The notes beneath the pieces are model-generated. The model was not told the origin of the DNA and ran no database searches. It was given only the letters and a program-made list of their open reading frames with translations. The position numbers and the translations under genes are program-made. A stretch of DNA of 57,134 bases from Candidatus Dojkabacteria bacterium (GTDB taxonomy: Bacteria > Patescibacteriota > Dojkabacteria > B142 > OLB20). This document shows, piece after piece, positions 2,254-52,618 of the stretch (positions are counted from its first letter, which is position 1; the number at the start of each line of letters is the position of its first letter). The DNA is taken from positions 1-57,134 of the forward strand of contig JBHHUN010000007.1 in NCBI GenBank assembly GCA_046753765.1. The letters run 5' to 3'.

Positions 2254-3444
2254 ATGGAGGCCAATATCTTCGAACCATATCTTGATCTGCTGCCATATAT
2301 GGCTGCGGCATTCTTTGTCAGCTTGTTGTTGACGCCAGTTATTGGTTATCTAGCTACAAAATACAGATTCATTGACCTGCCAGCGAAATTACGTAAAAGA
2401 ACCGACAAAACAATAGACCAGAGGATACACGATGAGGCCAAACCAAGGCTTGGCGGGCTTGCAGTTTTGATCCCCTTTTTCCTGATTGCTTTTGCAGGCT
2501 CAACACTCACCTCTCAGGTATGGGGGATGCTTCTGGGTCTTGGAATCATCGTTATAGTTGGAGTGCTTGATGACAAGTATGAGCTTTCAGGGGGTGTCCA
2601 ATTTGCATTTCAACTTTTGGCGGCAATTATTGTTGTCGTGAGTGGTGTGAGCATTACTCATGTTGACGTTGCGGGGCTTAGTATCGACTTCAACAGTTTC
2701 TCGAGAGAATTAAATCTCGGCAGTTTCATTTATAACTTTGTTTTTCCAGCAGATCTAATAACTGTTGGATGGATCATGATCATCGTAAACGCATTAAACT
2801 GGGTTTGTGGAATTGACGCTTTAGGTGAAGGTATTACGTTTATTGCTGCACTTACTACCATGATCTTAGCTGTCCGGGTCGGGTCACCGGAGTTTGCTAT
2901 CTTCCCGGCATTACTGGTGGCAGGACTATTAGGATTTATTCCTTACAACTTTCCTCCATCAAAGATTATCGGAGGGACAGCCGGACACACCGGATATGGA
3001 TTTTTGCTGGCTGTTTTAGCTATCCTCAGCGGTGCCAAGATCACGTCCGGTATTATCCTGCTCAGTATTCCACTAGTAGACATGGGCTGGGTGCTCCTCA
3101 ACAGGATGCGCGACCATAAAACAGTTAATATCTTCAAGCTGTTCTCAATAAGTGGAAGGGTTCACCTGCACCACCGTTTGATGTCATTGGGTTTCTCGGG
3201 CAAACAGACTCTATATATCGAAACGTCAGCTATGGCTGTCGTCTCATTGATTGCGTTGTACTTTGGTGACTTCAATACTTCTTTGATTACACTAGTTCTA
3301 GTGATCGCACTGCTCATAATCTTTTTCACTATCATATCACTGCGAACCCGCAACAAGCCAAGCACCCCAAAGCCTCCCCCTAGTGAACCTGAACCGCCAG
3401 TTATTGACACCGGTCCTACCCCTGAAGAAAAATACGCTTACTAA
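2254..3444 (+). CDS. Undecaprenyl-phosphate GlcNAc-1-phosphate transferase (MraY/WecA/TagO family)
   Basis: Multi-TM; PRLGGLAV, GVLDDKYEL, NALNWVCGIDAL, YNFPPSKI and HLHHRL motifs. Confidence 0.9.
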   Translation: MEANIFEPYLDLLPYMAAAFFVSLLLTPVIGYLATKYRFIDLPAKLRKRTDKTIDQRIHDEAKPRLGGLAVLIPFFLIAFAGSTLTSQVWGMLLGLGIIVIVGVLDDKYELSGGVQFAFQLLAAIIVVVSGVSITHVDVAGLSIDFNSFSRELNLGSFIYNFVFPADLITVGWIMIIVNALNWVCGIDALGEGITFIAALTTMILAVRVGSPEFAIFPALLVAGLLGFIPYNFPPSKIIGGTAGHTGYGFLLAVLAILSGAKITSGIILLSIPLVDMGWVLLNRMRDHKTVNIFKLFSISGRVHLHHRLMSLGFSGKQTLYIETSAMAVVSLIALYFGDFNTSLITLVLVIALLIIFFTIISLRTRNKPSTPKPPPSEPEPPVIDTGPTPEEKYAY

Positions 3445-23842: not shown

Positions 23843-23868
23843 TTGACAACACCCCCTGGGGGTGTTGT
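23843..23868 (+). promoter_or_regulatory. -35 box overlapped by a perfect 11-bp inverted repeat (CsoR-type operator candidate) upstream of gdhA
   Basis: TTGACA at 23843-48; ACAACACCCCC-T-GGGGGTGTTGT at 23846-23868. The matching -10 is weak. Confidence 0.65.
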
Positions 23869-23891
23869 ATTTCGCTTTTAAGGTTTACACA

Positions 23892-25127
23892 ATGAATAAC
23901 CCACTTGTAAACGCACACAAGCAGCTTGAAAGTGTCGCTTCCTTAATAAAGCTGGAGAGCTCAATTCTGGAGCGGCTCCAGAATCCAGAGAGGCTTATAA
24001 AAGTATCGATTCCACTTAGGATGGACGAGGGAGAAGACAGGGTTTTAGTTGGATTTCGCTCCCAGCATAACAGCACTCTTGGTCCATACAAAGGTGGGGT
24101 CAGGTTTCACCCTGATGTTACAGAAGATGAAGTTGTAGCACTCTCAATGTGGATGACCTGGAAAACAGCAACTGTAAACCTGCCATACGGTGGCGGGAAA
24201 GGTGGCGTTATAGTTGACGCGAAAGCCCTTAGTGAACACGAGCTTGAGAGACTTGCCAGAGGGTATGTACGTGCTCTGGCAGATTTCTTTGGACATGAGA
24301 CGGATATTCCAGCTCCAGATGTAAATACAAACGCACAGATAATGGCTTGGATGAGCGATGAATACAGCCGGATTGCAGGAAGCCACGGGAGTAAGCATAC
24401 ATTCACTGGTAAGCCTGTTAACCTTGGTGGTTCACTTGGCAGGGAAGAAGCCACCGGACAGGGAGGTGTATACGTACTCAATGAGCTCTCTGCAGATTTC
24501 GAAATAGATCCCAATGAAACAACCATTGCGGTCCAGGGAATAGGAAATGTCGGGTACTGGTTTGCAAAACTCGCGTCTGACAACGGATACAAAATCATCG
24601 CCATATCAGACTCACGTGGTGGCGTATATAACGCAGAGGGCATGGATATTGACAAGGTTGCCGATCACAAAAAGAAGTACGGCAATTTAGCAGATTACTC
24701 TGCCAAGAGCATTGAAAACAAAGACCTGCTTGAACTGGATGTGGACATACTCGTTCCATCAGCCCTGGAGAACGTAATAACAGAGGAAAATGCTGCCGAC
24801 ATAAAGGCAAAATATATTATAGAAATGGCAAACGGGCCAATCACACACGAAGCTGAATCTATTCTTCTGGATAAAGGGATAACAGTGGTTCCCGATATTC
24901 TTGCAAATGCAGGAGGAGTGACTGTCAGCTACTTTGAGTGGGTTCAAAACAGGATGGGTTTTCACTGGACACACGGTGAGGTCCTCTCAAAACTGCAGCC
25001 AATTATGGCAGACGCGTATCAACAGGTTACAAACAAAAGCCACAAACTGAGCACAGATCTAAGAATGGGTGCGTATGCCGGTGCAGTTGAGAGGGTTGCT
25101 GAGGCAATGAAGATCAGGGGTTTTTAA
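23892..25127 (+). CDS. gdhA: Glu/Leu/Phe/Val dehydrogenase, glutamate dehydrogenase-like
   Basis: GPYKGGVRF, GGGKGG, DIPAPDVNT, TGKP, GREEATG, QGIGNVG, NAGGVTVSYFEW. Start reassigned to the ATG at 23892. Confidence 0.93.
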   Translation: MNNPLVNAHKQLESVASLIKLESSILERLQNPERLIKVSIPLRMDEGEDRVLVGFRSQHNSTLGPYKGGVRFHPDVTEDEVVALSMWMTWKTATVNLPYGGGKGGVIVDAKALSEHELERLARGYVRALADFFGHETDIPAPDVNTNAQIMAWMSDEYSRIAGSHGSKHTFTGKPVNLGGSLGREEATGQGGVYVLNELSADFEIDPNETTIAVQGIGNVGYWFAKLASDNGYKIIAISDSRGGVYNAEGMDIDKVADHKKKYGNLADYSAKSIENKDLLELDVDILVPSALENVITEENAADIKAKYIIEMANGPITHEAESILLDKGITVVPDILANAGGVTVSYFEWVQNRMGFHWTHGEVLSKLQPIMADAYQQVTNKSHKLSTDLRMGAYAGAVERVAEAMKIRGF

Positions 25128-42695: not shown

Positions 42696-43421
42696 CTAAA
42701 CTATATTTTGATCAGTATAGACATTTACGTCCTGACTGCACAAGATGAGTGCAGGACACTTGTTAATACTGGCACTCCATTCCTTATTTGGGTGCTGCCG
42801 ATTTACGTTGTGGAGCTTGAGTAGAATGTTGCGCTTCTTATCTCCAACAGCGAAAACAAACACTTCATCTGCTTTTTTTATCATCCCAGGGGTGATTGTG
42901 ATCCTTTTCGGGTGGACTGTGTCGAGCTCGTGAGCAACAGCGAGCTCATTACCGTAGAAGGTTTTACTAAACATAGATTTTGAGGCAGGGAGAATTCCAG
43001 CGATGTGACCGTCTGCCCCTATTCCAAGCATTATAATCGTGAAGTAGCTTCTTGCGAGATATTCGTTGAGCTCATCGTTAAAGTCCTGAGCCTCTTGCTG
43101 ATGCCCACCACCACTCAGGAGATTTATGAGCGAAGCTCCTCCTTTAAGTAACTGGTCATGAAATCTTGTCTCTCTGAACATCTCCCAGTCAGCGTGCATA
43201 TGCTTGGGGTCTTTGTCCCAACGCTCATCTCCCATCATTACAGTAAGATTGGAGAAATCGTCAATACTCAGGAATTCTGGAATTCGGTTATAAACTTTCT
43301 CTGCACTCCCACCAGCAAGAAGTAACAGTACTTTCCTGCCTTCTAAAAGCTTTTTAGCCAGGAGATCTGACAGGTGTTTAGCTGCCTCGATTTCAGGTTT
43401 TGAGGAGATAAGAAATTGCAT
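42696..43421 (-). CDS. pgl: 6-phosphogluconolactonase-like protein
   Basis: LAGGS, GDERW, LGIGADGHIAGILP, RITIT; first gene of pgl-gnd-zwf. Start reassigned to ATG 43421 because the ORF-track extension is the antisense tRNA. Confidence 0.82.
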   Translation of the reverse strand: MQFLISSKPEIEAAKHLSDLLAKKLLEGRKVLLLLAGGSAEKVYNRIPEFLSIDDFSNLTVMMGDERWDKDPKHMHADWEMFRETRFHDQLLKGGASLINLLSGGGHQQEAQDFNDELNEYLARSYFTIIMLGIGADGHIAGILPASKSMFSKTFYGNELAVAHELDTVHPKRITITPGMIKKADEVFVFAVGDKKRNILLKLHNVNRQHPNKEWSASINKCPALILCSQDVNVYTDQNIV

Positions 43422-43508: not shown

Positions 43509-43582
43509 CGGGGCGTAGCTCAGTTGGCTAGAGCGCGCGGTTCGGGATCGCGAGGTCGCTGGTTCAAGTCCAGTCGCCCCGA
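43509..43582 (+). tRNA. tRNA-Pro(CGG)
   Basis: CGGGGCG/CGCCCCG acceptor; anticodon arm CGCGG-TTCGGGA-TCGCG; GGTTCAAGTCC. Confidence 0.95.
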
Positions 43583-43633
43583 CATACCAAGGCTGGAAAT
43601 CTTTTAAAATCACACTAATACATAGATATCCTT

Positions 43634-44404
43634 ATGAACTCAAAGACAGTTAACTCCGTAAAGAAGAAAGGCGTCAGATTTGTAAGATTCCAATGGACAA
43701 ATAATGCAAACATGATCAGAGAGAAAGCTGTCCATATTGATCGAGTATCCCAATACGCAAAAAGAGGAATAGGTGCTACACCAGCCGAACAGGTTGTGCC
43801 TGTTATGTACGACGTTCCGGTACAAAATGATCTTGGGCTTGGCCCAGTTGGTGAAGTACGCTTAGTACCAGATTGGAGCACTCTTAACATCATTCGAGAA
43901 TGAATTCTTCCTTCTTTGGAGAGAGGACAGGAGCAATTTCAGCCCTGTCGACAAAACAACATTTTCCTCTGTCCTGGCACTGGATATTAGTACAGACATC
44001 ATCAATGAGATCAGTACAACACTTTTGGCACAAGGCATTACTGTAGAGATGTATCACTCCGAATCAGGTCACGGTCAGCAGGGAATGGCACTCACCTGCA
44101 TCTAAGTCTCTGGAAAAATGGTAAGAACATCACTTCTGATTCTATGCAGAAAAGCAAGCTGCACAATCCTCTGCAGCTTGATCCGGGGAACCTATCAGAA
44201 AAAGAGCGTGCAGCAGAGTCGATTGTGCGTCTCCCGACAAATCTTTGCGTCGCTATCAAAGAGTTTAAGAAGAGCAAGGTGATAAGGAATACGATTGGTG
44301 GCAATCTGGCCACGTCTTACCTGGCGGTGAAGTCGGCGGAGTGGAAAGCTATGAAAGATATGACGCTTAAGGAAGAGGTTGAAATACTACTTGAGAAATA
44401 CTAA
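43634..44404 (+). pseudogene. glnA: Glutamine synthetase (GS I-like) pseudogene in three reading frames
   Basis: Frame A: GVRFVRFQW...GLGPVGEVRLVPDWSTL. Frame B from ~43890: SFENEFFLL...EMYHSESGHGQQ. Frame C from 44078: AGNGTHLHLSLWKNGKN...DPGNLSEKER...RLP...YLAVKSAEW...LLEKY*. Only 771 nt in total. Confidence 0.85.
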
Positions 44405-44559
44405 TCCTGTTTTCTAAGACCACCTTTGAGATATTCGGCTCAATCTACCCGCTATACGATTATATTTTCTACCCTCCTACTTATATCCACCCTCTAATCG
44501 ACATTACCTGAATATTATCCACCCTCAACCCCTATTTTGTACTAACTTTTAACTCGATT

Positions 44560-46629
44560 CTACTCTATCCTGAACGCCCCCCGTAGGATATTCCCAACAA
44601 CCCCCATCCAGCCTCTTTTTCTATTCATCTCAGTCTCGGTTAATTTGAAGTGCTGTTCAAGATAGGTATCAACCGCAGTAACATCCTCCCCATTTGCGAT
44701 CAATGTGCTCCTATACTTGAGCAGCATCGCTTTAATCATTGGATTAGCCAAATCCAAGGGTTTTGGTTGTTTCTTGGATTGTTTTTTCTCTTGACCAAGA
44801 ACATCATACCGCCCAAAACCAATCGCCCATCGCATTACCCACTCAAAATCATCCTGCATTCCGGTCCACAGTAATGTACCCAGCATACGCAAATGCACCA
44901 GATTCCTCGCCACTTGGGCAGCTTCCAGTAAGATCTTCCACTCAGGCGTTGGATCTGCAAGTGAGGGGAGGCCTGTCTCGGTAATATAGATATCCGGTTC
45001 AACGATTTCTGCATTTGGATGCCTTTTCTTAATCTTTGTTGCCGTTTCTGCGATCAGATCTGCAAGTCTTACCGTCTGAACAATTATCCCCTCTGGAAAC
45101 CTCACCCAGTTGTTGATATATGTATCCAGACCTTCACCTACGTCAATCTTCCCCATTGCCAAGTTGGCACCTAACGATTCTGCCCCAACGTACATGTTGT
45201 AGTATTGCATCCCAATGAAATCTGCATGAAATCGACCGTCCTTGACGCTCTCCTTCATAAACATTCTCTCCCACATGTTGTTCCCCCAGTTCATAAACAA
45301 CGAATCAACGTAAGAGCGATAGTATTCGCGCTTACTCGGCGTCTTCTTTGGAGCGAAAATTGGAGTATTGTGTGAATATCCCACCTGCACATCCAGATCT
45401 ATCTTTTTAAGGGCGTCTCTGGCAAGGATATGGCCTTTCACGGAGTGCCTCATAGCCGGTAGATACCCATTGATTACATCTGTCCAAACCCTCCTTGCTA
45501 AATCGTAGAGCCTTGGAACTATCCATTTTTTAGGCTCAAGCAGATTGCGCCTGAGTTCACCGGGGTCAATATCTATACCCCCGATAGCAAGTACTCTTCT
45601 GTATTCAGCTTCTAAGACAGCCCTGCGCTCTTCTGTTATGAAGCCCCTGTGAGGTGGCCAGTCTCCAGCAAGGTATCCGGCGGGGAAGGTTGAGGAAGGT
45701 TCATTGATTGTTAGTACGTAACCGGGGCGTGCATCTTCACCCAACGCTCCGTATACCTCGCTTACGTAGTCTCTAAACAAAGCTGGTGCATCAGGATTAC
45801 TCCAGTCCCCCTCTATCCAGCTTGGAAATGTAAAGTGCTGGAAGCACACAACGGTATCAACCCCATTTGATTTTGCATACCTGAGGATTTCTTGAAAGAA
45901 TTCAAAGTTCTCTTGATTCAGCCCTCCCCCTTCACCTGGAGGCAACATTAACCGGCTCCACTCTGCACTTAGGCGAAATGCACTACCCCCTTGAGCCTTT
46001 ATTCTGTCGATCTCTTCGTACCAATAGTTGATGTCTACTCCAGCTCTGTCCGGCATAGGCATTATTTCAAGATCACCACCTTCAAGCTCCATGGGAGTCT
46101 CGTGTTGGAGAAAGCGTTCCAACCTATCTCTGATCTTCTGATACCTACTATCGATGTCAGTCCCCTGCTCGCCGTTTAAACCTGCAAATTGATTCAGAAT
46201 CAATACAGTCCTCATAGTATCTTGGGACCCTTGGCTTACGAATCCAACTACCTCAGTTAAGAAATCGTGAGCATTTTCTTCGTCGCGGTGCTCTTCTTCA
46301 TCGACTACATTCAAAAGGATCTCCAACAGGTCCACATCGAGCTCCATAATATTCAAGCGGTGACTTCTATCGTTTATACCATGCTCATTAAAGCTATCCT
46401 TACGGATTTCAAGGCGTTGCTGAAAAACCTCCCTTATACCAGAAACAAAATCATCTCTTTCGTATTCATCTCTATTGATCCAAATATTTCTAAGTCTCGT
46501 ATTTACGCCTGTACGCACGTGCATACCCCAGATATCCAACTCCATAGCACCTTCAGGATATTTCTGAAATGTTGAGGTAGCAGTTCCGTCTCCTTGTTTT
46601 AACAAATCAGGGACTGGAGTGCGATCCAT
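44560..46629 (-). CDS. Divergent glycoside hydrolase family 1 protein
   Basis: FRLSAEWSR, HFTFPSW, TINEP (acid/base), YITETG (nucleophile), DDFEW; long unrecognised N-terminal region. Confidence 0.8.
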   Translation of the reverse strand: MDRTPVPDLLKQGDGTATSTFQKYPEGAMELDIWGMHVRTGVNTRLRNIWINRDEYERDDFVSGIREVFQQRLEIRKDSFNEHGINDRSHRLNIMELDVDLLEILLNVVDEEEHRDEENAHDFLTEVVGFVSQGSQDTMRTVLILNQFAGLNGEQGTDIDSRYQKIRDRLERFLQHETPMELEGGDLEIMPMPDRAGVDINYWYEEIDRIKAQGGSAFRLSAEWSRLMLPPGEGGGLNQENFEFFQEILRYAKSNGVDTVVCFQHFTFPSWIEGDWSNPDAPALFRDYVSEVYGALGEDARPGYVLTINEPSSTFPAGYLAGDWPPHRGFITEERRAVLEAEYRRVLAIGGIDIDPGELRRNLLEPKKWIVPRLYDLARRVWTDVINGYLPAMRHSVKGHILARDALKKIDLDVQVGYSHNTPIFAPKKTPSKREYYRSYVDSLFMNWGNNMWERMFMKESVKDGRFHADFIGMQYYNMYVGAESLGANLAMGKIDVGEGLDTYINNWVRFPEGIIVQTVRLADLIAETATKIKKRHPNAEIVEPDIYITETGLPSLADPTPEWKILLEAAQVARNLVHLRMLGTLLWTGMQDDFEWVMRWAIGFGRYDVLGQEKKQSKKQPKPLDLANPMIKAMLLKYRSTLIANGEDVTAVDTYLEQHFKLTETEMNRKRGWMGVVGNILRGAFRIE

Positions 46630-46715
46630 ACGTACTATATATAAAAGAACAATTGTAACTCACCGGGAGTCTATTCACAAAACACTTGTCCGATTATTGA
46701 GGATTGAAATATCGT

Positions 46716-47384
46716 TTATTCGGACCGTCCGATTCTAAGAAGAAGGCTAATCACTTCCGAAAAAGTTGAGGCATGTAATTGGGTTCTATTAGCCACTTTT
46801 GGGCGGTTTGCAAATTCATTGTAGTAGATGAAGTACTCCGCCACCCCATTCTCAACTATCTGAAAATCAGTATAGCCATCACCAATGACAACAGTTTTGC
46901 CTTGGAGTTGCAACTTCTTTGCTACTCTGGCCTTTCCACCGTCATGCGCCATAGGGTTGTCAGTATCGATCCCCTGAAATATGCCACTACTGAAGATGAA
47001 ACTGTTCGCATAGATGTTCGCTACATCTACACCGAACGGCTCAAGAACAGGGGTGATAATCTCTTTGAATCCTCCAGAAAATACATGAAGATTGTATGCG
47101 TTGAGCTTGTCGAACTCTTCGACAAACCCTTCCGACAGTTTACTACTGAGTAATTTTGCTGTATCGTCAACAATTTGCTGCGTAAGCGGCAATATGTCAA
47201 CCCTTCTTGCCAATGACTGACTAAATGTTATGTCGCCGTTCATCCCCATATCGGTTATTCTAGCTACCTCGTCCAACACTTTTAATCGTTTAGAATTACT
47301 ACCCAATGCTAGCCGAAATAATTCTTCCATCGTTTCAACAGATACGATTGTACTATCAAAATCAATAATCAGATTCTTAATCAT
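46716..47384 (-). CDS. HAD-IB phosphatase (phosphoserine phosphatase-like)
   Basis: DFDST, SGG, K and GDGYTD motifs I-IV. Confidence 0.88.
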   Translation of the reverse strand: MIKNLIIDFDSTIVSVETMEELFRLALGSNSKRLKVLDEVARITDMGMNGDITFSQSLARRVDILPLTQQIVDDTAKLLSSKLSEGFVEEFDKLNAYNLHVFSGGFKEIITPVLEPFGVDVANIYANSFIFSSGIFQGIDTDNPMAHDGGKARVAKKLQLQGKTVVIGDGYTDFQIVENGVAEYFIYYNEFANRPKVANRTQLHASTFSEVISLLLRIGRSE

Positions 47385-52099: not shown

Positions 52100-52563
52100 T
52101 TAACACAAATTACACCAATTTACTTGCAGGACATTGAGATATGCTGCTCCATCTTGAAAGATACAAACCCCATCTTCTCCAAGATCATCAGTTCGGATTT
52201 CTAGTTTTCCATTGTTTTTTTCGCAATAAACAGAGGCAGGGTTTGCCATATCAGAAGCATCTCCATTACTGCAATCCTGTGGACACGTTGCTTTTGTCTC
52301 ACCACATAAATCTTCGCACACATCATCCGGTAGATCGTTGCCGTTTAAGCCCTCCGTAAATGTTTTCCTCCCGGGACTGCGCATTGCCTCGAATATGACT
52401 CCACGACCAGATATCCAGCGACTTCACACTCCGTAAACGAATTTATTTGACCCGCTTTATCCCTCTCAACGTAAACATAGGTACCCAGTCCGGCTATAGC
52501 TGAAGCAAAAAGTATGGAGCATACAAGCAGGACCCCCATTAAAATTAGTAGCTTTTTATCCAT
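52100..52563 (-). pseudogene. Frameshifted secreted Cys-rich protein with DUF333 domain
   Basis: The 5' ORF (TM, INSFTECEVAGY..ESYSRQC) and the 3' ORF (KTFTE...CPQDC...MANPASVYCEK...GVCIFQDG) join if one A is added to the A4 run at 52363-66. The DUF333 tail is atypical. Confidence 0.65.
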
Positions 52564-52618
52564 TTTCAGTCACTGATAAGTGACACTCGCTTACGAGTAT
52601 TATACAAAATATTGAGCT

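Follow-up and report, generated by a model that had tools for sequence, protein, structure and literature searches.

The window, by which we mean the whole stretch of DNA that was analysed (57,134 nucleotides), contains three overlapping plus-strand open frames between a tRNA-Pro(CGG) gene (43509-43583, plus strand) and the stop codon, at 44560, of a 689-aa GH1-like gene (44560-46629, minus strand). An ORF scan placed these frames at 43619-43903 (MNSK...DWSTLNIIRE, then a stop), 43866-44105 (...TSFENEFFLL...ESGHGQQGMALTCI, then a stop) and 44009-44404 (...AGNGTHLHLSLWKNGKNITSDSMQKSKLHNPLQLDPGNLSEKER...LLEKY, then a stop). The left flank is formed by the 6-phosphogluconolactonase gene pgl (42696-43421, minus strand), the first gene of a pgl-zwf-gnd run. 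Using intact 444-446-aa homologues as tblastn queries against the window, with the same outcome on the whole genome, together with Pfam searches and MAFFT alignment, we found four collinear pieces of one ~445-aa glutamine synthetase (GS)-family gene at 43634-44404 on the plus strand, the first of them 50 nt downstream of the tRNA gene.

Segment 1 (43634-43888, frame A) comprises the start codon and the N-terminal beta-grasp domain, MNSK...DWSTLN, and corresponds to family residues 1 to ~85; in tblastn, family residues 1-86 aligned to 43634-43894 (E 4e-30). The start of the catalytic domain, TSFENEFF...ESGHGQQ, follows as segment 2 at 43887-44081 (family residues ~130-193) in the +1 frame, here called frame B, where family residues 130-197 aligned to 43887-44093 (E 8e-17). 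Segment 3 (AGNGTHLHLSLWKNGKNITSDS, 44078-44143, family residues ~238-260), which carries the G.G.H.H metal and glutamate site, is in frame A again, with family residues 232-255/260 aligned to 44060-44131/44140 (E 1e-7). The C-terminal helices, MQKSKLHNPLQLDPGNLSEKER...LLEKY, make up segment 4 at 44144-44404 (family residues ~360-444), also in frame A, ending in the stop codon TAA at 44402-44404; family residues 360-444 aligned to 44147-44401 (E 3e-24). Segments 1, 3 and 4 therefore lie in one common frame, and besides the terminal TAA the frames are closed by TGA at 43901-43903, when segment 1 is read on, and by TAA at 44103-44105, when segment 2 is read on.

The Pfam matches followed the same division. 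Gln-synt_N_2 (PF16952) matched residues 4-83 of segment 1 with 40.4 bits, against a gathering cut-off of 35.7, and Gln-synt_C (PF00120) gave three separate matches, at model positions 21-104 (segment 2), 145-172 (segment 3) and 267-341 (segment 4), the latter two both lying in the third open frame. The PF00120 scores were 27.6 and 56.5 bits against a cut-off of 24, and model positions ~105-144 and 173-266 were missing from the remnant. A preliminary description of this DNA had reported four GS segments in the correct order, with frame changes at ~43890 and 44078, an in-frame jump at ~44140 and about 255 of ~445 codons remaining; tblastn, Pfam and the alignment agreed on the order, tblastn returned the same frame changes and jump, and we counted 258 surviving codons for a family whose modal length is 444 aa. 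It had also proposed an alignment to an intact GS, in which (tblastn, MAFFT) the fragments proved collinear with a single parent and the breakpoints could be located.

Parent family of the remnant

A search with a padded query returned 1522 homologues, and the best 120 of these 1522 had lengths of 439-488 aa, most often 444. Over the ~255 surviving residues, the remnant was 48-53% identical to 24 aligned intact homologues. Most of the closest intact homologues were from cyanobacteria; Desulfobacterales, Vulcanimicrobiota and Gemmataceae contributed some. We scored two intact relatives, P0001 and P0013, with NCBIfam models. The GlnA type I model (TIGR00653, cut-off 429 bits) gave 265.6 bits for P0001 and 249 bits for P0013, and the type III GS model gave 272 bits against a cut-off of 470. 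The best model was gamma-glutamylputrescine synthetase (NF045547), at 462 and 443 bits, which is below its cut-off of 650. The nearest named family is thus gamma-glutamylputrescine synthetase, and the parent is predicted to be a GS-family ligase and not a canonical glnA. The earlier designation of the locus as a glutamine synthetase gene was therefore kept at the level of the family, on the strength of PF16952 plus PF00120, and given up for glnA, as all NCBIfam cut-offs were missed.

Deletion junctions and lost motifs

In the MAFFT alignment with the 24 intact homologues the remnant is interrupted by three clean gaps, which are 46, 44 and 99 columns wide (98 for the third in a second alignment). 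The reading frames require the deletion lengths to be 2, 1 and 0 modulo 3, which gives ~137, ~133 and 294-297 nt, a total loss of ~565 nt or ~42% of the gene length. At the protein level the window copy lacks ~188 family residues, in three blocks. When these lengths are added to the 771 nt present, ~445 codons are obtained, so that three deletions explain all of the missing sequence.

Junction 1 (43886-43889, plus strand) joins AAC (Asn, frame A) to ACA (Thr, frame B) with a 2-nt overlap, removing ~46 codons (~137 nt) and causing the +1 shift; it reads CTT AAC / ACA TCA, has at most two common bases (43887-43888) and is placed to within 2 codons in either direction. At junction 2 (44078-44081, plus strand) the four bases GCAG are common to CAG CAG (QQ, frame B) and GCA GGG (AG, frame A); here ~44 codons (~133 nt) are gone, including that for the Glu after GQQ, and the sequence returns to frame A. 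Junction 3 lies in frame somewhere within 44132-44160 (plus strand), with ~98-99 codons (294-297 nt) gone, including those for NSYRR, DNREAA.R and FE.K. Because the closest intact homologue is only 53% identical, the breakpoints are exact to a couple of codons and any microhomology is putative. It is arguable at junction 2 alone, where the common bases would number five (GCAGG) if an ancestral invariant Glu codon, GAR, came after QQ. The GCAGG microhomology previously proposed for this junction was thus borne out for GCAG, while its fifth base belongs to the presumed ancestral codon.

Repeats able to drive deletions, or to cause collapse during assembly, were absent from the remnant; the only pair found was 17 nt long and 76% identical, and it was rejected as a cause of the deletions, as it flanks no junction. 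Separately, a perfect 9-bp inverted repeat (44155-44163 and 44172-44180) adjoins junction 3 and is enclosed by an outer 6-bp pair (44135-40 and 44194-99), the whole occupying 44135-44199 of the window. On the minus strand the 44155-44180 hairpin is followed by a T-rich tail, has a terminator-like score and lies 380 nt downstream of the GH1-like stop codon. We did not retain it as a significant structure, its fold z-scores being modest (only -1.1 and -2.3), and it could be a chance feature, a recruited terminator or related to the deletions.

In the alignment of the family, 35 of the 80 strictly invariant columns fall in the deleted parts, as do 63 of the 142 columns conserved at 95% or more (~44% of conserved positions). 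In GS enzymes, the second metal site, the arginines that bind phosphate/ATP and the Glu flap come from the Glu after GQQ and the NSYRR, DNREAA.R and FE.K motifs. All four motifs lie within the gaps and are absent from the remnant, as had been noted from the sequence at the outset. No single open frame holds the full motif set, the coding sequence being spread over three frames with two internal stops on read-through. Since the motifs that form the metal, ATP/phosphate and flap sites were deleted, neither a GS active site nor an active enzyme can be made from the remnant.

Independent assembly and coding potential of the pieces

As the source is a metagenome-type assembly of 69 contigs, we considered whether the gene might be intact in the cell and the gaps produced by assembler collapse or chimeric joining in the metagenome bin. 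However, a Logan contig of run SRR29324594 reproduced window positions 43554-46903 (3350 nt), with all three junctions base-identical and a single mismatch, at 46717, which is 2.3 kb off and outside the remnant; this second assembly may come from the same sample as the window. It also encoded the exact 89-aa and 86-aa ORF products. In addition, there were no internal repeats able to cause a collapse, and tblastn did not find the deleted parts of the gene elsewhere in the assembly. We therefore give an assembly artefact almost no credence. An intact allele may accompany the deleted one in the population (heteroplasmy). The mismatch itself reflects a silent variant in the population: the stop codon of the HAD gene (46716-46718, minus strand) reads TAA with T at this base and TGA with C.

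A different reading of the intact frames is that the pieces still work, either as small proteins or through +1/-1 ribosomal frameshifting that yields a 256-aa non-enzymatic protein, with selection explaining the missing stops. The 89-aa beta-grasp ORF (43634-43903) and the 86-131-aa C-terminal ORF (44009/44144-44404) are both open and have an ATG start, and the common frame of segments 1, 3 and 4 would suit such a product. However, the pieces have lost every phosphate/ATP, flap and second metal-site motif, a consensus scan found no promoter-like site for the remnant, and no slippery or stimulatory RNA family was detected, the tRNA being the only structured RNA found in a search of the locus that included riboswitches. 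Moreover, no similar short proteins were present in 15 billion sequences, where both ORFs formed singleton clusters. Working fragments are thus extremely unlikely.

Age of the inactivation

The surviving ancestral frames contained no stop in 258 codons, compared with 29 stops in 510 codons of the off-frames of the same DNA, and there were no small frameshifts inside the surviving segments. A stop arises from 3.2-3.8% of random substitutions in this sequence. In simulations of neutral change, the frames stayed free of stops with a probability of 0.27 at 0.05 substitutions per site, 0.089 at 0.1, 0.015 at 0.2 and 0.0007 at 0.4, which places the inactivation within about the last 0.1 substitutions per site under neutrality. 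The remnant retained 41 of the 45 strictly invariant residues (91%), yet was only 53% identical to the consensus, and its divergence was concentrated at variable columns. Retention of near-invariant residues (69 of 79, 87%) was slightly below that of the lowest intact member (intact members retain at least 92.5%), and selection may therefore have been somewhat relaxed, either before the deletions or after them.

The codon usage of the remnant was compared with that of host and homologue genes by a synonymous-codon log-likelihood difference (host minus homologue usage). Host genes gave +0.078 (sd 0.027) and the homologues -0.075 (sd 0.039); the remnant, at +0.110, fits the host genes better than the homologues. 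Taken together, the lack of stops and small frameshifts, the retention of invariant residues and the host-like codons indicate a gene that was long under selection and was recently inactivated. The two corresponding statements of the preliminary description, that nonsense codons are not scattered through the surviving parts and that the decay was by recent, repeated deletion and not by point mutation, both held.

The same data bear on whether this could be an old pseudogene that died long ago and has drifted neutrally, its deletions being the visible part of a general decay. The long terminal branch (0.89-1.36 changes per site, the median being 0.07), the deviant amino-acid composition and the change of 10 of the 79 near-invariant residues would all be expected of such a gene. 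However, if it were neutral, the ~47% amino-acid divergence would need ~0.3-0.4 substitutions per site, at which the probability of finding no stop in 258 codons is ~0.001-0.01; neither the segments free of small frameshifts nor the uneven conservation (91% of invariant columns kept versus 53% overall) fits neutral drift. An early death of the gene is accordingly very unlikely, and we prefer its recent inactivation after a long period of selection.

Origin of the gene

In the two nearest genera a conserved run of HAD, GH1-like, pgl, zwf and gnd genes occupies the corresponding region. The GH1-like gene is separated from pgl by 38 nt in genome G003, with no tRNA and no GS between them, and in genome G001 only by a 173-aa ORF (2643-3164, minus strand) that had no NCBIfam match, again with neither a tRNA nor a GS. 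The remnant and tRNA-Pro(CGG) thus form a lineage-specific insertion, a 1.1-kb insert between pgl and the GH1-like gene that is absent from the relatives searched and breaks the synteny conserved in G003 and G001. The sister genera are distant (pgl 47-54% identical), so that acquisition, amelioration and rapid divergence had plenty of time to occur.

The tRNA gene has itself moved. In the sister genera G001 and G003 it is clustered as Pro(GGG)-Leu(CAG)-Pro(CGG); here the counterpart of that cluster (G000:C4:1216-1910) consists of Pro(GGG), Cys and Leu(TAA) alone, Pro(CGG) having come to lie between pgl and the remnant. We considered this tRNA as an island attachment site and rejected it, as neither a direct repeat of its 3' end nor an integrase remnant was found; a tRNA-Pro near pgl in genus g6 was set aside as a counterpart because it is a TGG and not a CGG isoacceptor. 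Only ~145 residues (203-348) of the 689-aa GH1-like protein are covered by PF00232 (model positions 60-199 of 453), and the gene is predicted to encode an atypical relative of family-1 glycosidases beside oxidative pentose-phosphate genes, an arrangement conserved in the sister genera.

Searches for relatives of the remnant gave no match among 40 relatives, and among metagenome contigs no close relative with an intact or differently deleted copy, the sole match being 32% identical. With P0001 as the query, the subfamily was not found in 400 Patescibacteria genomes, where the best matches were 33-37% identical. When 221 genomes of the class were searched with PF00120, GS was present in 28 of the 220 others (~13%). 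Twelve of these class GS genes, examined individually, were ~427-513 aa long and 23-29% identical to the remnant's family; they have the PF00120 catalytic domain in common with it, whereas they differ from it in length and in the N-terminal region, show no synteny and have no counterpart in this genome. Those of ~480-500 aa have an apparent extra N-terminal stretch, such that the alignment with P0001 begins near residue 100, and a conserved C-terminus, ...EVLYHHEITNQ.LWN.F.

In a quick LG+G4 tree the remnant fell inside a cyanobacterial clade (99 SH-aLRT). However, a careful C20 mixture tree placed it on the family backbone with a support of 63/13 and an end branch of 1.36, and in an AU test a grouping with non-cyanobacteria was not rejected (p = 0.63). 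In view of this p value, the weak backbone placement and the long end branch, we do not rely on the donor of the quick tree, and the proposal of a cyanobacterial donor was withdrawn.

It could instead be supposed that the gene is a vertical relic, ancestral to Dojkabacteria or Patescibacteria and cleanly lost elsewhere, in which case it would represent true ancestral genome reduction. The fully host-like codon usage is what such a history would leave, as is the C20 placement on the backbone and not inside a donor clade. However, the subfamily was absent from the 40 relatives (searched with the remnant), the 221 class genomes (PF00120) and the 400 genomes of the phylum (P0001), the sister genera have the GH1-like gene and pgl adjacent without a scar, and the GS of class members, where present, is of a different type. 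Vertical descent is thus unlikely. Among the genomes searched, the parent subfamily is foreign to the phylum and was probably acquired horizontally by a genus-level lineage; as the subfamily is foreign and the insertion is lineage-specific, the loss concerns an acquired accessory gene and not ancestral core metabolism.

Genome content

The genome measures 1.26 Mb (relatives sampled, 0.5-2.1 Mb) and is 94% complete, so a GS could lie on a missing contig; neither the PF00120 profile nor tblastn found another GS in the assembly. This was also the outcome for the second glnA that the preliminary description had suggested looking for. A glutamate dehydrogenase is present (23862-25127), and no convincing GOGAT was found, the only candidate being a partial Glu_synthase (PF01645) match of 23 bits. 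Since the genome has no GS, glutamine, or the product of the ligase, must come from outside. The organism would then resemble the ~87% of its class that lack GS and would have to depend on external glutamine.

We also searched the long intergenic gaps of the window for large gene remnants. There were none at 17.9-18.7 kb, and only a split DUF333 gene at 52.1-52.6 kb. This gene (PF03891, E 5e-12; 52100-52569, minus strand) is apparently separated by a frameshift from an N-terminal part that bears a signal/TM segment, the frameshift being near GGGAGGAAAACA (~52360-52372), beside tRNA-Pro(TGG). Either this is a further candidate pseudogene or the assembly has an error in a homopolymer.

Discussion

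We conclude, with a probability of roughly 0.85, that 43634-44404 is a non-functional pseudogene of a ~445-aa GS-family ATP-dependent ligase gene, one that was acquired horizontally, maintained by selection and then disrupted by three deletions. We propose the following order of events. The parent gene, from a subfamily otherwise found outside Patescibacteria and mostly in cyanobacteria, would have entered the lineage by horizontal transfer and been held under purifying selection long enough to adopt the codon usage of its host. Three separate internal deletions, two of them frame-shifting, followed this period of selection and most likely arose by replication slippage or end-joining at short microhomologies.

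If this is correct, a bacterium of this kind once made use of a GS-like ligase from a subfamily typical of cyanobacteria. The annotation of the locus also changes, in that the two short 'Gln-synt' ORFs are pieces of a dead gene and the genome should be scored as lacking GS. To our knowledge, few pseudogenes have been documented in the candidate phyla radiation, and the locus offers a clean, datable example of gene loss in such a genome. A more specific version, in which a long-resident gene from outside the phylum, of a family centred on cyanobacteria, was excised by a burst of 130-300-nt microhomology-type deletions with no visible earlier inactivation by point mutation or small indels, is unlikely at present; were it true, it would imply that the deletion spectrum of ultra-small Patescibacteria is skewed to large events, and would make possible a historical link of the Dojkabacteria lineage with cyanobacteria-rich communities or hosts.

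Deletional bias is known to erode bacterial pseudogenes (Mira, Ochman and Moran 2001; Kuo and Ochman 2009, as cited in PMC6054270). The present locus agrees with that pattern in that a dispensable gene is removed by deletions, and the arguable microhomology at a junction fits the signature of slippage or alternative end-joining discussed in PMC6054270. Deletional erosion of a dispensable gene is already well known, and the locus points to no new mechanism. Of the 104 deletions in a set of 53 pseudogenes, 81 did not exceed 15 nt (Danneels et al. 2018, PMC6054270), whereas all three lesions here are of 130-300 nt and there is no small frameshifting indel; with n = 3, this skew to large lesions is only a hint.

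With regard to known enzymes, the intact family aligned end to end, by sequence similarity, with GS-fold structures (E 1e-53 to 1e-66). The nearest of these dodecameric enzymes were archaeal GS I-alpha (8OOL and 8OOW), the 'probable glutamine synthetase' of P. aeruginosa (4HPP) and the glutamate--methylamine ligase 9QUR. Similarity of this kind does not settle the choice between ammonium and amine use by the parent.

The closest known counterpart is the 444-aa GS family protein of cyanobacteria (Lyngbya aestuarii, Moorena, Crocosphaera and Nostoc), which is also present in Desulfobacterales and Vulcanimicrobiota. In 17 of 80 loci the intact 444-aa gene is directly followed by an Amidohydro_2 (PF04909) gene, and an Amidohydro_2 gene also directly follows the GS-family gene on the contig of the best match (L134 5287-6405), which suggests an uncharacterised two-gene ligase/amidohydrolase module in cyanobacteria; such a pairing would be more typical of an amine-processing module. 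The remnant has the same PF16952 plus PF00120 architecture as this 444-aa family, with which all four of its pieces are collinear at 48-53% identity and share 41 of 45 invariant residues. It differs from the family in being frameshifted and ~188 residues short, and in having no Amidohydro_2 gene downstream.
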